Source of the DNA: an uncultured bacterium
GTDB lineage: Bacteria > Cyanobacteriota > Vampirovibrionia > Gastranaerophilales > Gastranaerophilaceae
Assembly (NCBI GenBank): GCA_902788345.1
Contig: CADAJP010000001.1
Location: forward strand, 153,795-217,794
Direction of reading: 5' to 3'
DNA: 64,000 nt
Numbering within the stretch: position 1 is the first letter of the stretch; every line of letters starts with the position of its first letter. Shown piece by piece: positions 3,931 to 64,000 of the stretch. The position numbers and the translations under genes are program-made. The notes under the pieces are model-generated. The model ran no database searches and had not been told where the DNA came from. It saw nothing but the letters and a program-made list of their open reading frames with translations.

Positions 3931-5472
3931 TTATATTTCCTGTGTCATGCAATCTATTCCGCCTAACAATTTTAAATAATTGCCACTCGATACAAAGTAA
4001 ACATTCTTTACCCCGTTTTGTTTGAAAACTTTGCTTGCTGCTTCATTTAATTCAGGATAACCGGAGCTGTTTGTAATGAAGAATGTTCCTTTCATTTTTG
4101 ATGTTCCTCCTACTCCGTTTGCAAAATTAACTTGCGGAACACTATCATCTTTTGGAACAGTAAAACAAGGTATTTTTACTAATTTGTAGCCTGCTTTGGT
4201 TAATGAAGCTTCGGCATCTTTTGTTATTGAGGCTGTTTTTTCTTTCATTTCTTCAAGTTTATCAATAAAGTGTTGTTTTTGGTCTTCAGACATTTCGGAA
4301 ATTTTTGTATTTTTAAGCATGTCTATCCCAGCCTGATAATCAGGTACTGCCATTTCTCCGTTGCCAAGCGGATGATATGTCATGTCAATATGAAAATCAA
4401 ACTGCGGAATGTAGGTTATATCTTCCGGTTTTAATCCCAGATCCGAAGCAATTTGATTTTTTGCCTTAATTCTGTTATCAGGAGTGTCTTCAAGCCCCAT
4501 ACTTTTTAGCGTGTATCCGATGGATTCTTCTCCTATTACGGCTCCGGGTTTGCCATCTGCTTTCAGGGTATTTAAGACATTCCCGCCTTCTAAATATGTA
4601 TTTGATTTTACGATTTCATCTTCAGGAACTGTTTTTATGTATTCACTTGTTTTCCCGTTTATAGCGGCTGAACCTTGTCCTGAAGTCCCTATATCACTTC
4701 TGCGGCTTTGTATGGATTCTATTTCCTCTTTATTAATAAAGTTATATTCATTTTTGCTTTGAGCATAAACTTTTCCGTCAGCTCTTCTGACGGTATAGTC
4801 TTCTACCCAAATGTCAGCAGAATGTACTGTTTCAACCTTAAAACCAAGTTCTTTACCAATATAATTCATTTCTTGCTTAACTTTTTCAAAATTTTCTGAT
4901 TTTGAACTGTCACTCATTTTGATTGTGCGTATTTCTCTGTTTAATCCTTCTGACCAGTTTTGTTCTTTAGGATCTGCGTTATTCTGCATTTTAATCGGTT
5001 CAAGTCTTTCATTACTAACCCCTTTGTCATCATATGATGAAACTCCGTCAAAATTAAGATAGTATTTGCCTTTTGGTAAATTTGATGTGTCAGCCGCAGT
5101 GGAATCAAAATTTCGCATTATTGCTATTTCATCATCAAAAGTGTCAATGTAGGAGTATTTAAGAGTTTCATTTTTTGATGTGTCAATCACTCTGGATTTA
5201 CTGCTGTTGTCCATCATTTGAGATAGGGTTTCGGCTTCTTTCGTGTCTATTACACCGTTTGAATTTGATATTGATGTTTTATTGTCAGCAATATCCATTA
5301 AATCTTTGAGTAAATTAATGTTCTTTTCAGTTATTGTATCGTTATTTCCCCTAATTTTGTCAAATATGGACTGTACGGCAGGGTTATTTACTTTAATATC
5401 ATTCCATTTTGAGCCTGCCGATATTTCTATCTTATAAATTTTGTTTTTACTGTCGTAATACGAAAAGTCCAT
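3931..5472 (-). CDS. Guanidino-group-modifying-enzyme superfamily protein (agmatine/peptidyl-arginine deiminase-like) with a roughly 230-aa unknown N-terminal region
   Basis: The C-terminal half carries ADIWVEDY, YLEGGNV, FHIDMTY and a terminal LLGGIDCMTQEI (GG-x-x-C catalytic Cys signature). No signal peptide. Confidence 0.5.
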   Translation of the reverse strand: MDFSYYDSKNKIYKIEISAGSKWNDIKVNNPAVQSIFDKIRGNNDTITEKNINLLKDLMDIADNKTSISNSNGVIDTKEAETLSQMMDNSSKSRVIDTSKNETLKYSYIDTFDDEIAIMRNFDSTAADTSNLPKGKYYLNFDGVSSYDDKGVSNERLEPIKMQNNADPKEQNWSEGLNREIRTIKMSDSSKSENFEKVKQEMNYIGKELGFKVETVHSADIWVEDYTVRRADGKVYAQSKNEYNFINKEEIESIQSRRSDIGTSGQGSAAINGKTSEYIKTVPEDEIVKSNTYLEGGNVLNTLKADGKPGAVIGEESIGYTLKSMGLEDTPDNRIKAKNQIASDLGLKPEDITYIPQFDFHIDMTYHPLGNGEMAVPDYQAGIDMLKNTKISEMSEDQKQHFIDKLEEMKEKTASITKDAEASLTKAGYKLVKIPCFTVPKDDSVPQVNFANGVGGTSKMKGTFFITNSSGYPELNEAASKVFKQNGVKNVYFVSSGNYLKLLGGIDCMTQEI

Positions 5473-5526
5473 ACAACCTCTATTAATAGATAAATTTATA
5501 ATCGGTCTTTTATGTTTAAAACTTTA

Positions 5527-29230: not shown

Positions 29231-29779
29231 TTAGATAATTTTTGATAATGCATTTATATCATTATATTTTTGGTCAATAGCACCATCATTTCTGTCATGC
29301 TGTCTTATAATGTGGATTGCGCCGCCTACGACTGCCGCTAATCCGGCTGCAACTAACATGTATTTGCCTCGCTTTGCACTTGATGAGCTTGCAAATTTTT
29401 CAACTGCGTCAATTACTTTTGTTATAACTTTTTTACCTTTTTCGGTTTTACCGATTTTCTTTCCTGCTTTTGTAATCCATTCGCCTAATTTTGTTGTGAT
29501 TTTGCTTCCGATTTTTGTACTGTTAATTTTTTCAAGTGCTTTACCGCCATAAGTCGTTGCCAAATCAAGACCTTTTGTTACATATTTATCTGCAGCTTTA
29601 TACAATTTAACCATTTTTTTAGGGTTTGCTTTTGCGACTGTATTAACTGCATAAGCAGCACCCCCAGTTCCTGCAAGTGCAACGGCCGTCCCAAAATTGT
29701 TGGCAAATTTTTCCTGACTTTTAGCTTTGTTGTAATCGTAACGAGCACCTACATAACTTCCAAAATTTACACTAGACAT
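29231..29779 (-). CDS. Lys/Gly/Ala-rich hypothetical protein with one hydrophobic Gly/Ala segment
   Basis: 182 aa with no signal peptide. Contains KIGKTEKGKKVITKVIDAVEKF and LVAAGLAAVVGGAIHII. Promoter motif copy D lies upstream. Confidence 0.55.
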   Translation of the reverse strand: MSSVNFGSYVGARYDYNKAKSQEKFANNFGTAVALAGTGGAAYAVNTVAKANPKKMVKLYKAADKYVTKGLDLATTYGGKALEKINSTKIGSKITTKLGEWITKAGKKIGKTEKGKKVITKVIDAVEKFASSSSAKRGKYMLVAAGLAAVVGGAIHIIRQHDRNDGAIDQKYNDINALSKII

Positions 29780-29817: not shown

Positions 29818-29856
29818 CCTACATTATTAAAGTTATTTTTTTTTAATTTATTGCCA
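29818..29856 (-). promoter_or_regulatory. Copy D of the recurrent promoter-like motif
   Basis: Minus strand reads tgGCAATA-aattaaaaaaaaata-ACTTTAATAATGTAGG. Confidence 0.5.
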
Positions 29857-29935
29857 TTGTATTTCTTATTTTCTTAAAAAATTCTATTATTACTAAGTTT
29901 TAGCGCTTAATAAATCTTAATAATATTATACAAAA

Positions 29936-29969: not shown

Positions 29970-31319
29970 ATGAGTGCAGATATTGATAAATCTAATATTG
30001 AAGATTTAAAACATCGAGTTAGGCAAAAACTGAATGAAACGCAACTTCTTACATATAAAGGGTCTGTTTCAAAACTTTTGGGTTTGACTGTTGAGGTAAA
30101 ACTTCCGGGACTAAAAATCGGTGATTTATGTTTTATTGAAACTTATGACGGGAAACAAAAACCTGCAGAAGTTCAGGCTTTCAAGGGTGAGGTTGCTCAA
30201 CTGTCTTTATTGCTTGATGGCGGTGGTATCGGGCAGGGTAGTCTTGTTACATCGACAGGAAAGCCAATAATTATTCCTGTAGGTGATTTTTTATTAGGAA
30301 GACTGATTGATCCGATGGGTAATCCCATTGACGGAAGACCGCTTGACCTGACTGATGCATCATGGCGTGCTATTGAAGGGCCTCCTCCGGGTCCGTTTGA
30401 AAGACCAATTATTACTGAACAATTTTCAACAGGTGTCAGAGCAATTGACGGGTGCATGACAATGGGGTGCGGTCAACGTCTTGGTTTGTTTGCAGGGTCA
30501 GGAGTCGGTAAAAGTACTTTGTTGGGTATGATTGCAAGAAATTCTGATGCGGATGTAAACGTTGTTGCGTTAATTGGTGAACGTGGCAGAGAGGTTAAAG
30601 AATTTGTAGAAGATGCTCTTGGCCCTGAAGGTATGGCAAAATCTGTTTTAGTTTGTTCAACAGGTGATAAACCGCCGTTAATCAGACAAAAATGTCTTTT
30701 AACCGCAACTGCTGTTTGTGAATACTTTAGGGATCAGGGTAAAAAAGTTTTCTTAATGACTGATACTATAACTCGTTGTGCAATGGCAGGGCGTGAAGTC
30801 GGTTTATCATTAGGCGAGCCGCCGACAATGAAAGGGTATCCTCCGTCTATATTTTCCTGGCTGCAAAAAGCTTTAGAAAGGGCCGGAAACAGTGAAAAAG
30901 GCTCTATTACCGCTTTATACACCGTTCTTATGGAAGGGGATGATATAAACGATCCTATTGTTGATATTGTTCGTGGTATTGTTGATGGTCACATATTTTT
31001 ATCAAGAAAGGTTGCAGAATCCAATCATTATCCTGCTATTGATGTTTTGGGGAGTATTTCCCGTTTGATGAGTGCAATTGCATCTCCTGAACACAAAGAG
31101 GCTGCGGCAAAATTAAGGACAATAATGTCATTGTATCGTGAAAATAAGGATTTAATTGATGTTGGTATGTATCAGCCGGGGTCAAATCCTCGCCTTGATA
31201 CAGCTATTGAAATGATGCCGAAAATTAATGCATTTTTACAGCAAAGAACAAGTGAGAGTGTAACAATGGAAGGTACAATAAGTCAGCTTGTTGATATGAT
31301 GGAAGGAATTGAAATATAA
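29970..31319 (+). CDS. fliI: Flagellar/type III secretion ATPase (FliI/YscN family)
   Basis: Walker A LFAGSGVGKSTLLGMIAR, Walker B KVFLMTDTITR, and an F1-beta-like core (GYPPSIFS). Confidence 0.9.
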   Translation: MSADIDKSNIEDLKHRVRQKLNETQLLTYKGSVSKLLGLTVEVKLPGLKIGDLCFIETYDGKQKPAEVQAFKGEVAQLSLLLDGGGIGQGSLVTSTGKPIIIPVGDFLLGRLIDPMGNPIDGRPLDLTDASWRAIEGPPPGPFERPIITEQFSTGVRAIDGCMTMGCGQRLGLFAGSGVGKSTLLGMIARNSDADVNVVALIGERGREVKEFVEDALGPEGMAKSVLVCSTGDKPPLIRQKCLLTATAVCEYFRDQGKKVFLMTDTITRCAMAGREVGLSLGEPPTMKGYPPSIFSWLQKALERAGNSEKGSITALYTVLMEGDDINDPIVDIVRGIVDGHIFLSRKVAESNHYPAIDVLGSISRLMSAIASPEHKEAAAKLRTIMSLYRENKDLIDVGMYQPGSNPRLDTAIEMMPKINAFLQQRTSESVTMEGTISQLVDMMEGIEI

Positions 31320-32054
31320 CTATCTCAGGCGTAAAAAGGCTTCAATTTTTGCTTTAACCGAATTAGTTGCATAATCATCAATATCAATATAGAGTCCGTT
31401 ATATTTGTTTGCTAAATACTTTGCAAGTTGAGTTTTAGAACAAAAGGCCTGTGCATAGAATACTGTCGGAACTTCAGGTTCTGCATACATTTCAAGTTCA
31501 ATATCTGCCGGTACTCCTGCTTCAACACATCTTGTCCATCCGTACACATGTGTTTCATCAGGAAATAGTTTTAATACTTCCAAATCGTTTGGCGGAACAC
31601 CCCAAAAGCCGAATTTTGCTTTGCATTGAGTGTATTTTGTATCAATTATGTCTGTGTCTTTAACAATATTTGCCGTAATTGTTGTGATTTTGTCATAAAG
31701 CGGCATATTACTTGTTGAAATTTTTAAAGGTTTTCTGTATTCAAATGTTTCAAATATTGTTTCTTCCACATCAAACCCCATATCTTTAAGCAACTGAGCT
31801 GCAAACCAGCCGCTGTCACATTTATCCTTCCCAATCGGTGCAACAATTTTGATTAAATCATCTCTAAAATATATTGAATTATTAATTATTTGTTTAATAA
31901 TTTTGCAATAGCTTTCCGGCAGGATATTAAAGTCGGGTACTTTATCCGAAAAATCAAAATCCAAATCAAACCATTGAGCATCAGGATATTGCTGTTTTAT
32001 TCTTTTTATTGTCTGTGGGTGCGGATATCCCCAAAAACCGATTTTATTCTTCAT
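31320..32054 (-). CDS. Hypothetical protein with an internal duplication
   Basis: The N-terminal KNKIGFWGYPHPQ...YPDAQW is mirrored by KAKFGFWGVPPND...FPDETH at about residue 145. The stop codon abuts the fliI stop with a 0-nt gap. Confidence 0.5.
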   Translation of the reverse strand: MKNKIGFWGYPHPQTIKRIKQQYPDAQWFDLDFDFSDKVPDFNILPESYCKIIKQIINNSIYFRDDLIKIVAPIGKDKCDSGWFAAQLLKDMGFDVEETIFETFEYRKPLKISTSNMPLYDKITTITANIVKDTDIIDTKYTQCKAKFGFWGVPPNDLEVLKLFPDETHVYGWTRCVEAGVPADIELEMYAEPEVPTVFYAQAFCSKTQLAKYLANKYNGLYIDIDDYATNSVKAKIEAFLRLR

Positions 32055-52355: not shown

Positions 52356-53279
52356 TTATGCGGTCATATTATACTGAAAATTCGGTTTCATAATATCATC
52401 TGAATAAGGTTGGTTTTGAACTGCGAACGGATTATACGCACCCGGTGTATTTACTGCCGGCATTGCAGGGGTTTGAGGTGTTGGAACATTTCCTTGCATT
52501 GTCGGACTGTTTGTCATTTGCATTTGTGGGTTAGCAGCAGGAGTCTGTGCTATTTGTTCTGCTTGCGGATTTTGCATCCAGAACGGATTACCGTTTGGTT
52601 GATGTTCTTGTGCTTGTTCCGGAGTTTGCATTTGCTGTTGTTGTTCAATAAATGTTCTTAATTGTTCTTCTTTTTCAGCTTTTTCTTCCGAATAAGATTT
52701 ACCTACAATTTTACTTGCAAACCATTCACCTGCAATCCACCCTGCCATTGTACCGACAAAAGGAATTGGTATTACGGCTGAACCTATTGCGGCTCCTAAA
52801 CCGCCGCCTGTAAGTTTAGCAGTTGATTTAATTACTTCTGCTCCGCCCTGGAAGATGCCTTTTTCTTTTGTTGCTGTAAATATATTTGGAAGTTCAAACA
52901 ACATCATTGACAATGCACCAATAAACGGCATCTTTTTGCCAACGCCTTTGAAAAATCCTTTTGTGCCTTCTAAAAACACATTCCTACCGGTTAATCTTGC
53001 CGCTGATGTTTTTGTTAAAATATTTGATTTTATGCAAGGTATGAAATTTTTGAAGTTCTTTATAAAATTTTCGAAAAAATTTCCGGCACCGGCTTTTTCT
53101 AATGCGTGCCAGCCGGCCTGTGCTTTTGTAAATAATGAGCCGTTTGTTTTTCTTAAAGTTTCACCAATCGATTCACTAGCACTTCCAAAAATCAGTTCCG
53201 GAACTACCTCTCCTACACGTTTTGTGTAGCCCCAGGCTTTACCTAAATTGCTCATTGCCATTGATACGCCGCTAACCAT
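52356..53279 (-). CDS. Gly-zipper/Q-rich protein (paralogue of 46921..48042)
   Basis: GGGLGAAIGSAVIPIPFVGTMAGWIAGEWFASKIVGKSYSEE aligns with the paralogue. The Q/P-rich tail carries NPFWMQN and NPFAVQNQ. Confidence 0.6.
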   Translation of the reverse strand: MVSGVSMAMSNLGKAWGYTKRVGEVVPELIFGSASESIGETLRKTNGSLFTKAQAGWHALEKAGAGNFFENFIKNFKNFIPCIKSNILTKTSAARLTGRNVFLEGTKGFFKGVGKKMPFIGALSMMLFELPNIFTATKEKGIFQGGAEVIKSTAKLTGGGLGAAIGSAVIPIPFVGTMAGWIAGEWFASKIVGKSYSEEKAEKEEQLRTFIEQQQQMQTPEQAQEHQPNGNPFWMQNPQAEQIAQTPAANPQMQMTNSPTMQGNVPTPQTPAMPAVNTPGAYNPFAVQNQPYSDDIMKPNFQYNMTA

Positions 53280-53338: not shown

Positions 53339-53383
53339 CCTACATATATATAAAGTTTTTCTTTTTTGAATAATTGCTTTTTT
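53339..53383 (-). promoter_or_regulatory. Copy C of the recurrent promoter-like motif
   Basis: Minus strand reads aaaaaaGCAATT-attcaaaaaagaaaa-ACTTTATATATATGTAGG. Confidence 0.55.
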
Positions 53384-53415
53384 GTAACAAAAAGTTAATA
53401 TTTCTCTAAAAAAAC

Positions 53416-53443
53416 TAAAGATATAAGAAAAAATGCCGACATA
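53416..53443 (+). promoter_or_regulatory. Sigma-28 (FliA/SigD)-like promoter
   Basis: TAAA (53416-19), 15 nt, then GCCGACAT(A) (53435-43). Compared with the consensus TAAA-N15-GCCGATAA/T. Lies 46 nt upstream of ATG 53490. Confidence 0.6.
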
Positions 53444-53489
53444 GTAATTGCAGATATAAAAATGTCAAGAAAGGATAAAGCGTTCTACT

Positions 53490-55010
53490 ATGGGAATGGC
53501 AGCATCACAAGGCAGATTGTTATTTATGACAGCCAGAATTTCAAACAACGAGTTTGAACAGCAGGCTGTTGCATATTCAAAGCAGCGTCTTGCTGATGAT
53601 TCACAAGAGGCTAATGACCAATACCTAGAAGCTTTACAACAGACAGAATATCAGGTATTGACAGGTTATTACGGTGATACGGCTCAATATGAAGCTGTTT
53701 CTTATAATATTTTAACCGGATTTAATAATGTAGCCCAAAGCAAACAGTACATTATCTCTGATAATAGAGGAAGAATTATTGTTCCTTCAGCTATTGCTCA
53801 GGCTTTTGAAAACTCAAAACATAACTACAATTTGTTTTTAGAAACAGTTGAAAGCAGTCAGGGTAATCATTTTACTCAAGTATCAGAAGAAAACATTACA
53901 GAAGGCATGGTTCATGATGCTTGGGATAAATACCTTTCATCAATAAATAGAGGTGATGTTAACGGTATCTATGCAGATGATGTTACCTCAGCTAATAAAC
54001 TAAGACATATTGTCGGATTTTCTTATAATGAAGTTGCAAGCGGTGATTCTGCAACAGATTATGTTACATATAATACTTCTTTTATCGGAAGCGGTGCAAA
54101 AAGAGTTTATCTGAATAAGGATAAGGATAATAACTACTACTATAATAACTATAAAGTTGAGGTTGAATCTTATATTGATGCAAACGGATTAACCCAGTAT
54201 GCCGCATATTTCCAGGCAACAGAAGAACCACAGGAAAATTCTGAAAAATGGTATCTTAATGAAATACAGGTTGAAGCAAGCGGAAATGACTTTATATTTA
54301 AAGACAGCAATGGTAAAAGAATTCAGGAAGATTCAAACGGGAATATTTACATTGAAAAACAAGACTTTAACTTAAATAATACGGTTAATGTTGTTAATAA
54401 TGCAACAACTAACAGAGGTACTGCTTCTGCGACTACCGAGAAAAATGTATTGTTCTATGAGGGCGGTACACCGGAACAAAGACAACTTTATGACTATGCA
54501 ATGGCATTAAACAAAAAATATGCCACACAATATAAGCCAAATTCGACAAAATTAACATATGATGCTGACAAGGTACAGTATTATAAAAATATCTTTAATG
54601 AAATGACCACAAAAGGTTATACAACATATGATGATATGATTAAAGATAAGTATATAAATACTGAAGCAGAATCTGAAACTACACCATTTGCAAGTAATGA
54701 ATGGCTTGTAAGATACGTAAAACAGGGCAAGTTTGTAATCTCGTTCTACAGTAAAAATGATGAAAGCTTTATTAAAACGACACTTGATGATGATGAGTCT
54801 ATTGTAAATAAAGAAGATAAATCAAAAATGGCTATTGCTGAACAGATTTATCAAACTCATATGGATAAAATTGAAGCAGAAGATAAAAGATTTGATATGG
54901 AGCTTACAAAACTTGAATCAGAACACTCGGCACTTGTTACCGAATATGATTCTGTTGCAAAAGTTATATCAAAGAATGTTGAAAAATCTTTTGGAATTTT
55001 CAACGCATAA
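53490..55010 (+). CDS. Unknown-family protein with conserved helical termini and an N/Y/T-rich variable centre (paralogue at 63526)
   Basis: N-terminus MGMAASQGRLLFMTARISNNEFEQQAVAYSKQRLADDSQEANDQYLEAL. C-terminus EDKRFDMELTKLESEHSALVTEYDSVAKVISKNVEKSFGIFNA. No signal peptide. Confidence 0.65.
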   Translation: MGMAASQGRLLFMTARISNNEFEQQAVAYSKQRLADDSQEANDQYLEALQQTEYQVLTGYYGDTAQYEAVSYNILTGFNNVAQSKQYIISDNRGRIIVPSAIAQAFENSKHNYNLFLETVESSQGNHFTQVSEENITEGMVHDAWDKYLSSINRGDVNGIYADDVTSANKLRHIVGFSYNEVASGDSATDYVTYNTSFIGSGAKRVYLNKDKDNNYYYNNYKVEVESYIDANGLTQYAAYFQATEEPQENSEKWYLNEIQVEASGNDFIFKDSNGKRIQEDSNGNIYIEKQDFNLNNTVNVVNNATTNRGTASATTEKNVLFYEGGTPEQRQLYDYAMALNKKYATQYKPNSTKLTYDADKVQYYKNIFNEMTTKGYTTYDDMIKDKYINTEAESETTPFASNEWLVRYVKQGKFVISFYSKNDESFIKTTLDDDESIVNKEDKSKMAIAEQIYQTHMDKIEAEDKRFDMELTKLESEHSALVTEYDSVAKVISKNVEKSFGIFNA

Positions 55011-55053
55011 AGTTTTTTATTCCCGAAATGACATTTTATATTTTTCCCCTTTG

Positions 55054-55082
55054 CCGCTCAATCTTGAAGCGGTTTTTCTTTT
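55054..55082 (+). terminator. Terminator
   Basis: CCGCTCAAtcTTGAAGCGG followed by tttttctttt. Confidence 0.6.
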
Positions 55083-55855: not shown

Positions 55856-56518
55856 TTAGTCTTTTAAACCGTTATCTACAATAACTTTTGCAAGTATTCC
55901 GTTTATAAACGAAGTGCTGTCGTCTGTTGAATATTTTTTTGCAAGCTCCAGTGCTTCATCAACAACAACCTTCATTGGAGTTTCTTTTATAAAGAGTAAT
56001 TCTGACAATGCGATGCGTAAAATATCTTTATCCATCTTGACAAGACGGTCAAAATCCCATCCTTTTGAATATTTTTTGATATTTTCATCAATTTCTGAAT
56101 AGTTATCTCTGTATGCCTGAGCGATTTTAAGTGCATAAGTTTTTACTTCTTCCTGAGAATCAAGAGCACAAAACTCAGCAATTTCAAGACCAAGCAATGC
56201 TTTATCAGCAACATCAATAATTTCATCTATTTGAGTTTTCATATCAGCTGTCATAACCATAGGTACAGGTATGTTTGATGAACCTAAAGGACGATTCAAA
56301 TTTATATCATGTTCTGCTTCATAGTCATCAATCCTGTTTTTCATATCTGTTAAAACGCCAAGTGATGTCTTTAGTTCTTCAGTTGAGTTATTTATAAGTA
56401 TTCTTATAGATTTTATAATTATATCTTCCATATTTTCTTTTGAATAGGAAGCGATTTTATTATCAAACTGTGAAAATAATATAAATGCTAATTCTCTTGA
56501 TGCTCTGCGTGCCTGCAT
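55856..56518 (-). CDS. nusB: Transcription antitermination factor NusB (long form with a central insertion)
   Basis: ATG 56518 is preceded by AAGAGGTG. The N-terminus is MQARRASRELAFILFSQ and the C-terminus is FINGILAKV. Confidence 0.75.
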   Translation of the reverse strand: MQARRASRELAFILFSQFDNKIASYSKENMEDIIIKSIRILINNSTEELKTSLGVLTDMKNRIDDYEAEHDINLNRPLGSSNIPVPMVMTADMKTQIDEIIDVADKALLGLEIAEFCALDSQEEVKTYALKIAQAYRDNYSEIDENIKKYSKGWDFDRLVKMDKDILRIALSELLFIKETPMKVVVDEALELAKKYSTDDSTSFINGILAKVIVDNGLKD

Positions 56519-56683
56519 ATTCACCTCTTTTTCAATAAATGTATAACAATTTGAATATATCATAAAAAAATATTGATGTAAATGAATATTGTATTGTTCA
56601 CTTATTGCAAGTTCAGGGTTTTATGCTATAATTGTCCTTGGCATTTAAAATGCTGATATTACTTAGTAAGAAAGGAATTTATT

Positions 56684-63370: not shown

Positions 63371-63415
63371 CTTACATATATATAAAAACTCCACTTAAAA
63401 AAATATTGACTTTTT
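63371..63415 (-). promoter_or_regulatory. Copy E of the recurrent promoter-like motif
   Basis: Minus strand reads aaaaagTCAATA-tttttttaagtggag-TTTTTATATATATGTAAG. Confidence 0.5.
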
Positions 63416-63468: not shown

Positions 63469-63498
63469 TAAAGAATAATTGCATTTGTGCCGTCATAA
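63469..63498 (+). promoter_or_regulatory. Second sigma-28-like promoter
   Basis: TAAA (63469-72), 16 nt, then GCCGTCATAA (63489-98). The upstream CTCTAAAAAACTAAAG is shared with locus 53404-53420. Confidence 0.5.
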
Positions 63499-63525: not shown

Positions 63526-64000
63526 ATGGGATTATCATCTTCACAAGGACGATTACTAACAATTACGGCAAGACTCACATCAAATGAATATGAGTCACAG
63601 CAGATTTCGAATGCAAAAATGCGTCTTGCAGTTCAATCACAGGAAGCAAGTGAAGAGTATATTGGCGAATTAAATAAACAAGTATTCAACGTAGTTTCAT
63701 ATGACAGCAGTGGTAATATGACTTCAACCCCATTAACTGCAGGTTCATTGTATGAATATAACGATACAAAAAATCAATATATACTTACAAATTCTTCAGG
63801 AAAACCTATTTTAAACCACAAGGATGCCGAGAATTACAGAAATTCAAGAAACTTAGAAGATTTCTTAAGTAAATACGGCTTGAAAAAAATATTCAAAACT
63901 CAGGCTTTAGCTGATGCATACGCAGATGTAAGAGCAAAAATGGGCTATGATGCTAATGGCAATTATAATAAAAGAAATGACTATAAAGCTCAATATGATG
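63526..64000 (+). CDS. Paralogue of 53490..55010 (5' part; runs off the window end)
   Basis: MGLSSSQGRLLTITARLTSNEYESQQISNAKMRLAVQSQEASEEYIGEL aligns residue for residue with the N-terminus of the 53490 protein. Confidence 0.6.
   Translation, partial: MGLSSSQGRLLTITARLTSNEYESQQISNAKMRLAVQSQEASEEYIGELNKQVFNVVSYDSSGNMTSTPLTAGSLYEYNDTKNQYILTNSSGKPILNHKDAENYRNSRNLEDFLSKYGLKKIFKTQALADAYADVRAKMGYDANGNYNKRNDYKAQYD

Follow-up and report, generated by a model that had tools for sequence, protein, structure and literature searches.

A sigma-28-type promoter and a nameless protein superfamily with conserved ends in the Gastranaerophilales

The locus and its promoter

The window analysed here, a stretch of 64,000 nucleotides, comes from an organism placed in the Gastranaerophilales (Melainabacteria). 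On its forward strand, an open reading frame that starts with ATG at 53490 and whose stop codon ends at 55010 (53490..55010) encodes a 506-aa protein, and the terminal peptides quoted for it in the original prediction agree exactly with the translation. Upstream of this ORF, TAAA (53416-53419) is followed after 15 nt by GCCGACAT (53435-53442), at the positions claimed for a sigma-28 promoter; the gap between the −10 element and the ATG is 47 nt, not 46 nt as first given. The full −35 element, TAAAGATA (53416..53423, forward strand), corresponds to a family consensus of TAAAG(T/A)TT, and the −10 element (53435..53442, forward strand) to a family consensus of GCCGTAAA, the canonical form being GCCGATAA.

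Conservation of this arrangement is extensive. All 74 orthologues have TAAAG and NCCG upstream, separated by a spacer that measures 15 nt in 65 cases and 14 nt in 7; the letters of the spacer drift, and GCCGTAAA is the most frequent −10 element. The distance from the motif to the ATG varies between 58 and 116 nt in these orthologues, with a mode of 72. Across the family, the two-part consensus reads TAAAG(T/A)TT, 12 variable bases, GCCG(T/A)AA. A search of both strands of the window for TAAAG-N13-16-GCCGWMA returned 2 sites, compared to 0.10 expected from shuffled sequences, and both lie directly 5' of the two family genes that the window contains. When the pattern TAAAGTTT-N12-GCCGTAAA was scanned against metagenomes, 15 of the 121 sites among the matches listed were located upstream of ORFs that match the family HMM, at 15-57 nt from the called start, and 2 more of the listed sites preceded flgM (PF04316), in contigs L135 and L150, where flgM is located near sigma-factor genes that match B. 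subtilis SigD.

The site in the window fits the −10 consensus at only 6 of 8 positions and TAAA strings are numerous in AT-rich DNA, so that a chance resemblance in AT-rich intergenic DNA, with the gene transcribed by a housekeeping sigma factor, has to be considered. This explanation, however, deserves next to no credence given the excess over shuffled sequences at precisely the two family genes, the retention of both elements and their spacing in every orthologue despite the drift of the spacer, the occurrence of the same pattern before flgM elsewhere, and the lack of any comparable sigma-70-like site facing the ORF in the intergenic region. At the level of sequence, these comparisons show that ORF 53490-55010 is a real gene behind a sigma-28 (FliA/SigD)-type promoter that is maintained, along with its spacing, throughout the Gastranaerophilales. 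The promoter call of the original prediction thus gains strong support from order-wide conservation, from the presence of the motif 5' of paralogues and before flgM in flagellated bacteria, and from a FliA/WhiG-family sigma factor in the lineage.

The promoters of this family share with sigma-28 (FliA/SigD/WhiG) class-3 promoters the TAAA(G) element, a spacer of 15-16 nt and a −10 element of the GCCG(A/T) type. They differ in that the −10 element found most often is GCCGTAAA, not GCCGATAA, in that the regulon seen consists of unknown proteins without recognised flagellar late genes, and in the addition of a fixed upstream element, TGTWACA-N4-TTAACA. In the window, the latter takes the form TGTAACA-N4-GTTAAT (53383..53399, forward strand), two half-sites about 11 bp apart that are conserved in orthologues. 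Half-sites of the TGTWACA or (T/G)TWACA type peak at about −33 and −22 from TAAAG in the full set of 73 orthologues whose upstream flank is long enough, and the TGTAACA-type element is also found before paralogue promoters. One possibility is that it serves this family alone, as an activator site or an UP-like element.

The 5' leader (53443..53489, forward strand) contains a conserved A-rich GAAAGGA element (AAGAAAGGA at 53467-53475). Because one clade has a longer leader with a second GGA motif adjoining the ATG, the first GGA is not simply a Shine-Dalgarno site. For a leader with GGA motifs, CsrA-type control is conceivable. A conserved RNA structure in the leader was considered and rejected, as RNAalifold predicted 0 pairs and Rfam gave no match. 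Downstream of the ORF, a hairpin with the stem GCCGCT/AGCGGT and a 9-nt loop, followed by TTTTTCTTTT (55053..55082, forward strand), is a probable intrinsic terminator read from the sequence; it was missed by the terminator scanner, which allows loops of up to 8 nt. With this probable terminator, the gene would be monocistronic.

The protein family and its predicted fold

The product belongs to a large superfamily that is nameless in every library searched. The superfamily comprises at least 3,044 clusters at 50% identity, with lengths of 256-956 aa, and more than 369 full-length homologues; the members with a taxon assigned so far all come from gut or rumen Gastranaerophilales. No relatives of the 506-aa protein were found in Pfam, NCBIfam, PHROGs, PDB or BFVD, the PDB yielded no match to the target or its paralogues by sequence or by profile, tblastn of the same proteins against plasmids and phages returned nothing, and we found no description of the family in the literature.

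The layout of conserved ends around a variable middle, predicted from the single sequence, was borne out by comparison with 38 homologues, to which the protein shows 82% identity in residues 1-60, 24% in residues 176-320 and 77% in residues 431-506. The middle segment, rich in N and Y, is 148-253 aa long among homologues, and the shortest members of the superfamily (256-281 aa) have almost no insert. The AlphaFold model of the 506-aa protein (pLDDT 79.6) agrees with the helical termini anticipated from the sequence: it consists of a long N-terminal helix (residues 2-49), a small alpha/beta core, a variable beta-rich insert (residues ~176-320) and a long C-terminal helix (residues 444-505). A second model from the family has a pLDDT of 85.6. 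Family members are predicted to have in common a nearly invariant helix of about 50 aa at the N-terminus, another helix of about 60 aa at the C-terminus and a small alpha/beta core, which holds an inserted beta-rich domain that varies and can reach several hundred residues. No hydrophobic core is seen in the N-terminus, MGMAASQGRLLFMTARISNNEFEQQ, and no Sec signal peptide is apparent on reading the sequence; across paralogues, conservation of the first 22 residues extends to all faces of the helix. The first residues, MGxxxS, recall an N-myristoylation motif of eukaryotes, a match that we set aside as too short to carry meaning alone.

The second family gene of the window (63526..64000, forward strand) encodes a paralogue that starts with MGLSSSQGRLLTITARL and runs past the end of the window (the fragment matches the family HMM with E = 2e-19). 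Its full-length counterpart, 440 aa, is found in the near-identical contig L081 (20037-21359; E = 2e-28), and its own sigma-28-type promoter, TAAAGAAT, 11 nt, GCCGTCAT (63469..63495, forward strand), repeats the same two-part motif. With two copies in 64 kb, there are probably several per genome. A further conserved orthogroup was found in the family, and several distinct orthogroups are kept side by side, which suggests a multi-component assembly or a set of displayed proteins rather than one enzyme. The inserts of two long paralogues contain GLUG motifs above the Pfam threshold; such motifs are typical of secreted, surface and extracellular proteins.

Foldseek comparison of both models to the PDB, and of the full-length model to BFVD, gave nothing below E = 0.03. 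None of the analogues is significant, and the best are stalk proteins with an antiparallel N/C coiled coil, such as F1-gamma, the SMC hinge and IpaD. For the minimal 258-aa paralogue, the top match is F1-gamma (probability 0.66, TM 0.35-0.44, E = 0.3), and the SMC hinge with its coiled coil is also among the top analogues, all of which have E >= 0.3. In gross topology and size, this paralogue resembles F1-ATPase gamma/FliJ-type stalks, with an N helix, an alpha/beta domain and a C helix that pairs with the N helix; apart from the poor E value, the difference is that those stalk subunits are single-copy and have no hypervariable inserts of hundreds of residues. Type III secretion system (T3SS) tip and filament proteins (IpaD/SipD; EspA) offer an analogy only: they too combine a long antiparallel coiled coil with a distal globular or variable part and are exported independently of Sec, but the IpaD matches are non-significant (E 0.5-3, TM ~0.2), EspA was not recovered by the fold search, and no injectisome genes were seen.

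With flagellar axial proteins (FliC/Hag, FlgL, FlgK, FliD, FlgE), the comparison behind the original prediction, the family shares the lack of a Sec signal, conserved terminal helices around a middle that varies, the presence of several paralogues in a genome and transcription of the late sigma-28 class. Nevertheless, the 506-aa protein belongs to none of these classes (flagellin, hook, hook-associated protein, cap). As had been noted from the sequence, N-terminal signatures of flagellin, hook and HAP proteins are absent: Pfam and NCBIfam contain no flagellin match (PF00669/PF00700) even at E = 0.01, there is no Pfam or NCBIfam match to rod/hook/HAP models (Flg_bb_rod PF00460, Flg_bbr_C PF06429) or FliD, and no such match in the PDB by sequence or profile. 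The hhalign comparison of two family alignments (A1 and A2) to a hand-entered two-sequence Hag/FliC alignment gave probabilities of 0.2-0.6%. In the Foldseek comparison of the full-length model to the PDB, flagellar filament, cap and junction chains appear at E 0.4-2.8 with TM <= 0.2, and none is among the 50 listed matches of the minimal paralogue. Furthermore, the core topology differs, the family genes lie outside flagellar clusters, and one member comes from Zag_111, which belongs to a clade described as having no functional flagella. Of the axial reading, the sigma-28 promoter stood, and a likeness to flagellin, hook, HAP or cap proteins by sequence, profile or fold did not.

A highly diverged canonical component (flagellin/FlgL or FlgK/FliD), which would supply the filament gene that seems to be 'missing' where flagellar sets were judged incomplete, would account for the promoter, the terminal helices with a variable middle and the several paralogues, and would fill a gap in published gene tables, which have no FliC, FlgK, FlgL or FliD where the export core is kept (PMC4040986). 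We nevertheless consider this very improbable. Neither Pfam nor NCBIfam gives a match, the hhalign probability is below 1% (with the two-sequence flagellin alignment), and TM to flagellin, cap and junction proteins is 0.2 or less despite models with pLDDT of 80-86, in which one N helix, one C helix and an alpha/beta core take the place of the D0/D1 helix bundle of flagellin. Moreover, flagellated Melainabacteria have ordinary flagellins (PMC3787301), and hook and motor genes are also missing from the tables in question (PMC4040986).

Genomic context and flagellar genes of the lineage

The genes around the 506-aa gene are housekeeping genes, and no flagellar or T3SS gene adjoins any family member in about 100 loci. 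A paralogue within a flagellar cluster was sought and rejected: the contexts of P0001, P0133, P0264, P0134 and P0259 are housekeeping, bar one CheR and one PilZ gene. Small conserved ORFs of unknown kind adjoin some paralogues.

The recurrent partner is the divergent neighbour (52356..53279, reverse strand), a 307-aa protein with a glycine-zipper hydrophobic hairpin (hydrophobic segment at residues 160-183), a Q/P/N-rich tail and no signal peptide. Of about 77 loci, 39 have a gene of this kind beside the family gene, in divergent orientation upstream or on the same strand downstream, and a paralogue has weak Gly-zipper_Omp matches. A second conserved promoter-like element, GCAATT-N17-TTTATATATATGTAGG (53339..53375, reverse strand), precedes the glycine-zipper gene; in 1.5 Mb of related loci, 21 of its 30 sites precede glycine-zipper family genes.

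Elsewhere in the window, fliI, encoding the flagellar/type III secretion export ATPase (29970..31319, forward strand), was identified by Pfam ATP-synt_ab and T3SS_ATPase_C and by NCBIfam TIGR01026 (547.8 bits, cut-off 379.5); its presence is evidence that the genome keeps flagellar export components. This fliI is solitary, adjoined by neither fliH nor fliJ, and an adjoining ORF of 182 aa has no BLAST-detectable homology to the glycine-zipper neighbour. No FliA-family sigma factor is encoded in the 64 kb window. A fliA gene is present on a Zag_111 contig (L052:4858-5694; TIGR02479, FliA/WhiG family, 233 bits, cut-off 189.6), which also carries a family gene. It was recovered by phmmer with a hand-entered SigD query, the sole such query to give a result in the 1.5 Mb of flanks of family genes: flagellin, FlgG, FliP and FliG queries returned nothing, and neither did FliS-, FliW- and CsrA-like ones, a weak test confined to the flanks. 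Likewise, no export chaperone (FliS/FlgN/FliT-like) was recognised beside family genes with hand-entered queries, again a weak test. A weak FliC-C match in L055 proved to be an HlyD-type membrane-fusion protein, not a flagellin.

Published work describes reduced flagellar sets in this lineage. The gene table has Gastranaerophilales genomes without flagellin, hook, C-ring and motor genes, genomes without FliC keep FlhA/B, FliP/R, FliI, FliE/J and FlgB/C/F/G, and the reduced sets have no FliF, C-ring or P/L rings (PMC4040986). Soo et al. (2014, PMC4040986) describe the clade of Zag_111 as one in which functional flagella were lost. Sets with genes for the export gate, the ATPase and the rod but none for flagellin are reported from about 75% of Gastranaerophilales genomes, with a postulated role in secretion (bioRxiv 10.64898/2026.04.24.720558; PMC4040986). 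We found no literature on Gastranaerophilales ultrastructure and no report of a culture. As a refutation of the flagellar reading, the original prediction named family members in non-flagellated genomes that lack FliA; the family gene of Zag_111 falls short of this, since its clade is described as being without functional flagella but its contig has fliA. The window itself has fliI.

Export as a possible role of the family

Our leading interpretation, to which we assign a probability of about 0.42, is that the 506-aa protein, expressed under sigma-28 control, is exported independently of Sec as cargo of the flagellar type III export core that the lineage retains. Under this model, it would be a late, class-3-like substrate of the flagellar export apparatus, carried out by the parts that the lineage retains (fliI here; FlhA/B, FliP/R, FliI and rod genes in the tables), with the conserved helices serving as interfaces for export and for assembly, and with the exposed surface formed by the variable insert. 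Late export substrates are judged by the lack of a Sec or Tat signal and by a sigma-28 late-class promoter, and the protein has both features. The glycine-zipper membrane-hairpin partner likewise has no signal peptide. Against export, there are no flagellar or T3SS neighbours in about 100 loci and no axial or tip-protein similarity, and regulons unrelated to flagella can likewise be under the control of FliA-family sigma factors, as with WhiG in Streptomyces and sigma-28 in Chlamydia. Working export and the crossing of the outer membrane are in doubt because the published reduced sets have no FliF, C-ring or P/L rings (PMC4040986).

The two long predicted helices would suit a cytoplasmic coiled-coil protein equally well. 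Such a protein, under sigma-28 control and never exported, could be cytoskeletal, scaffolding or regulatory, with the N/C stalk docking on a partner; insertion into an ATPase ring in the manner of F1-gamma/FliJ is one possible form. The missing signal peptide, the lack of an export chaperone or secretion gene nearby, the cytoplasmic stalk proteins (F1-gamma, SMC hinge) heading the Foldseek list of the minimal paralogue and the published lack of the rings needed for a complete conduit (PMC4040986) all fit this alternative, but we regard it as somewhat unlikely because the 256-956 aa size range with a poorly conserved N/Y/T-rich beta insert and the multiple copies (the 64 kb window has two) are unusual for a scaffold, GLUG motifs occur in two inserts, and the structural matches are non-significant (E >= 0.3).

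Display at the surface could also be reached without the flagellar machinery, by a variable, adhesin-like 'lollipop' protein that leaves through a type I system or with the assistance of the glycine-zipper partner, sigma-28 being merely the regulator. Recurrent adjacency to a membrane-hairpin protein, conservation of both ends up to the very C-terminus, which is the site of type I signals, the variable insert with its GLUG motifs and the lack of a genomic link to T3SS genes are in line with this route. It appears distinctly unlikely, however, since ABC/MFP/TolC genes are not consistently found near family genes (an HlyD-like ORF occurs in L055 only and is incidental), RTX repeats are absent, and sigma-28 control together with the retained fliI points more directly to flagellar export.

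If the family is indeed flagellar export cargo, the system would resemble reduced flagellar sets used or proposed as secretion machines, in that export-gate, ATPase and rod genes are kept without flagellin; the difference is that the Gastranaerophilales system has so far been without a proposed cargo, for which the family becomes a candidate through the shared sigma-28 logic. Precedents for reduced flagellar sets include the basal bodies of Buchnera and the orphan FliI, FlhA and FliF of Chlamydia. A bolder and rather doubtful extension is that the incomplete sets, present in about three quarters of Gastranaerophilales genomes, are not relics but a working, FliA-controlled export and assembly machine, whose principal cargo would be the stalk family and its glycine-zipper partners, building an unseen appendage or a variable surface display that replaces the filament.

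The Gastranaerophilales are widespread in gut and rumen, and the family, wired to the flagellar late-gene sigma factor, provides a concrete, testable cargo candidate for the core of export and rod genes that, according to published surveys, is all that about 75% of their genomes keep of the flagellum. If exported, it would show how a flagellum can be put to new use once motility is lost and would add a new class of host-facing variable surface protein. Even if not exported, it represents the dominant sigma-28 regulon in the sampled DNA of the order and a new protein fold family.

Promoter of the family gene

The family gene (53490-55010, +) encodes a 506-aa protein, the translation of which matches exactly the peptides quoted in the original prediction. 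Upstream of it lie TAAA (53416-53419), a 15-nt spacer and GCCGACAT (53435-53442), with 47 nt separating the −10 element from the ATG. The proposal that this is a sigma-28-type promoter is borne out by the rarity of the motif, by its conservation and by its recurrence before a known target. The pattern TAAAG-N13-16-GCCGWMA is found at 2 sites on both strands of the 64 kb window, compared to 0.10 expected from dinucleotide-preserving shuffles, and the second site (63469-63495) is located 5' of a paralogue. TAAAG, a spacer and NCCG are present in all 74 orthologue upstream regions; the −35 element is extended by TTT or ATT, the commonest −10 element is GCCGTAAA, and the spacer measures 15 nt in 65 regions and 14 nt in another 7. 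With both elements conserved across orthologues and a variable spacer sequence between them, the alignment amounts to a classical phylogenetic footprint of a bipartite promoter.

Public metagenomes were searched for exact matches to TAAAGTTT-N12-GCCGTAAA, which yielded at least 121 sites. Among the 121 listed, at least 15 lie 15-57 nt upstream of the called start codon of ORFs recognized by the family HMM, and 2 others are directly upstream of flgM (PF04316, 61 and 59 bits), on unrelated high-GC contigs and close to sigma-factor genes matching B. subtilis SigD (4e-48 and 2e-42). Given that flgM is a textbook sigma-28 target, these two sites constitute a positive control for this variant of the motif. 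No sigma-70-like site of comparable quality faces the family gene in the intergenic region. Chance resemblance to a sigma-28 promoter is effectively excluded.

The surroundings of the family gene are housekeeping genes, namely nadD, yqeK, an SDR reductase, nusB, smc and scpAB, and a stem-loop followed by a T-run (55053-55082), read from the sequence 3' of the gene, would leave it monocistronic. In the NusB homologue (55856-56563, −; 235 aa), the NusB domain is confined to residues 130-227, so that the protein is extended N-terminally by about 125 aa.

The paralogue starts 8.5 kb downstream of the family gene (63526-64000, +; MGLSSSQGRLLTITARL...) and is truncated by the window end; its full length, 440 aa, was taken from a 98%-identical contig (L081, 20037-21359). 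It belongs to the same superfamily but to a different orthogroup, and carries its own sigma-28-type promoter, the site at 63469-63495, together with the same upstream TGTTACA element as the family gene.

Protein architecture and extent of the superfamily

The predicted layout of conserved ends and a variable middle holds across 38 homologues, with identity of 82% in residues 1-60, 24% in residues 176-320 and 77% in residues 431-506. The middle segment ranges in length from 148 to 253 aa and is N/Y/T-rich, and the protein contains no cysteine. AlphaFold, run with the family alignment, predicts a helix (2-49), beta-rich domains and a second helix (444-505) at a mean pLDDT of 79.6. In the model of a minimal, 258-aa paralogue (pLDDT 85.6), only a small alpha/beta domain lies between the helices (5-50 and 196-257), and this model shows the predicted core common to the family: N helix, small alpha/beta domain and C helix. 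Across paralogues, residues 1-22 (MGMSASQARLLSLTARLSDLEL) show conservation on all faces of the helix. The inserts of two long paralogues contain GLUG motifs (PF07581) above the Pfam threshold (P0133, residues 453-481; P0134, residues 380-401; loci L082 and L204); such motifs are characteristic of proteins that are secreted or located at the surface.

The promoter type is already known; the protein family, in accord with its original designation as unknown, is undescribed in Pfam (2025), NCBIfam (2026), PHROGs, PDB and BFVD, and no description was found in the literature searched. More than 369 full-length homologues were identified, none with a Pfam domain, and the few source names are all 'hypothetical protein'. 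A scan of species-representative genomes detected 150 loci encoding a relative, 80 of which were kept. Almost all of these 80 are labelled Gastranaerophilales, Melainabacteria or uncultured gut/rumen bacteria; 4 (L021, L044, L051, L056) bear the labels Methanomethylophilaceae archaeon, Bacteroidaceae or Muribaculaceae, and two termite-gut proteins are labelled Heliobacteriaceae. Such labels are probably due to mis-binned or mislabelled MAGs.

A profile search of 1.84 billion representatives recovered 3,044 cluster representatives at E <= 1e-3. Among the best 150 of these (E <= 7e-40), full-length members span 256-956 aa and most match in two stretches, one N-terminal (~120 aa) and one C-terminal (~150 aa). 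With a divergent member as the query, a further, wholly unnamed orthogroup of ~495 aa was retrieved; together with the length range, this indicates that the superfamily consists of several widely conserved orthogroups along with minimal and very long forms. The 64 kb window contains two copies, and a further 5 occur in ~1.4 Mb of flanks.

Reduced flagellar systems and a possible export role

The suggestion that the product is a flagellar axial or filament protein fared unevenly: the sigma-28 promoter favors it, but the protein has no relation to known flagellar proteins and, in ~100 loci, no family gene has a recognizable flagellar neighbor. Foldseek found no significant match in PDB or BFVD; the nearest analogues, none of them significant, were F1-gamma, the SMC hinge and IpaD, each with a globular tip borne on an antiparallel stalk of its N- and C-terminal helices. 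Chains of flagellin, the cap and the junction were matched only at E >= 0.4 and TM <= 0.2, and profile comparison with flagellin, for which the flagellin alignment consisted of only two sequences, gave a probability below 1%. In kind, the family resembles sigma-28 late genes whose products have an axial-protein-like layout. A hyper-diverged flagellar component is one of the less likely readings.

The window itself encodes the type III/flagellar export ATPase FliI (29970-31319, +; T3SS_ATPase_C domain; TIGR01026, 548 bits, cut-off 379.5). This fliI is solitary, with no fliH or fliJ alongside, and its neighbors (29231-29779, −; 31320-32054, −) have no Pfam match. Complete flagellar gene sets have been reported in only 3 of 9 Gastranaerophilales genomes, whereas 4 genomes keep most of FlgB/C/F/G, FlhA/B, FliE/I/J and FliP/R and lack FliC, FliD, FlgE/K/L, FliF/G/M/N and MotAB (Soo et al. 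2014, PMC4040986). In a 2026 preprint, the sets are complete in ~25% of genomes, and the remaining ones keep flhB, fliI and flgG, with a 'postulated' secretion role (bioRxiv 10.64898/2026.04.24.720558).

The genome Zag_111, from a clade described as having lost functional flagella (PMC4040986), has both a family member and fliA: a FliA/WhiG-family sigma factor (L052:4858-5694, +; contig MOYD01000036.1; TIGR02479, 233 bits, cut-off 189.6) is encoded 3.6 kb away from the family gene on the same contig. Judging from IMG gene-id ranges, Zag_111 appears to correspond to column three in the Soo table. Thus, the family is not confined to flagellated genomes and probably occurs in genomes keeping FliA and the export core. 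Taken together with the ordinary flagellins of flagellated Melainabacteria (PMC3787301), these data also imply that the family is no flagellin replacement in flagellated cells.

We infer that the protein exits the cytoplasm as a late-class substrate of the flagellar type III export core that the lineage keeps; under this model, the conserved helices of the stalk would function in export and assembly, with the variable insert exposed. We put the probability that the family is cargo of a repurposed flagellar machine at roughly one in four, a reading of high interest if true. The leading alternative to type III export is that the product is a coiled-coil protein of the cytoplasm, likewise under sigma-28 control; export by a non-T3SS route is less likely. 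The link between the family and the reduced flagellar systems of Gastranaerophilales, although indirect, is new and testable.

Accompanying elements and other promoter-like sites

Located 16-34 nt before the −35 TAAAG, the element TGTWACA-N4-(T/G)TWACA (53383-53399, +) keeps its position in each of the 73 orthologue upstream regions and is a perfect palindrome, GTTACAAATTTGTAAC, in some loci. Because the window's other sigma-28-like site lacks it, it may be a family-specific regulator site. The leader UACGAAAAUUAUUGAAAGGAA (53443-53489, +), conserved among orthologues in L001-L080, is unstructured. In one clade (L057, L067-L071, L076) it is lengthened, with a second GGA motif at the ATG, an arrangement that resembles two-site CsrA-type control; neither csrA nor fliW was found in the flanks of family genes. 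The upstream region of the paralogue P0264 (L083:9870-10000, +) contains no sigma-28 motif. An 18-nt sequence, TCGGAAAGGACTAAAAAA, is present there in two copies, one at about −130 and one that overlaps the ribosome-binding site.

Further intergenic sigma-28-type sites precede unknown proteins, all without a signal peptide, including genes in relatives at L056:14537-15451 (+), L065:7565-8473 (−) and L049:4345-6066 (−). One product in relatives is an MgtE_N (FliG-like repeat) protein of about 303-304 aa; another, of 573 aa, has a Ser/Asn-rich N-terminus and an anthrax-lethal-factor-like metalloprotease match of 25.4 bits, below the Pfam cut-off of 27.4. Within the window, TAAAGTTT-N11-ACCGATTA (5500-5526, −) comes after a T-rich stretch ending the upstream pnp gene and stands 28 nt upstream of a 513-aa ORF of unknown family (3931-5472, −; no signal peptide; C-terminus ...GGIDCMTQEI), which may be another sigma-28 target.

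Divergent from the family gene is a recurrent partner gene (52356-53279, −; 307 aa), adjoining it in 39 of ~77 loci in two different arrangements. The partner protein lacks a signal peptide; its features are a hydrophobic hairpin of the glycine-zipper type, a tail rich in Q, P and N, and a C-end that is conserved (YANDIMM..MPFN..A in relatives). Partner genes have a conserved upstream element of their own, CAATW, ~18 nt and TTTAWWWATGTAGG, for which 30 sites were counted in 1.5 Mb (the window plus L001-L083), 21 of them preceding partner-family genes. The three sites in the window are at 53339-53375, 29818-29860 and 63371-63410 (all −); among the genes they precede are a 58-aa ORF, which diverges from the paralogue, and a 182-aa small membrane-protein gene divergent from fliI. 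The element would constitute a second promoter-like class.
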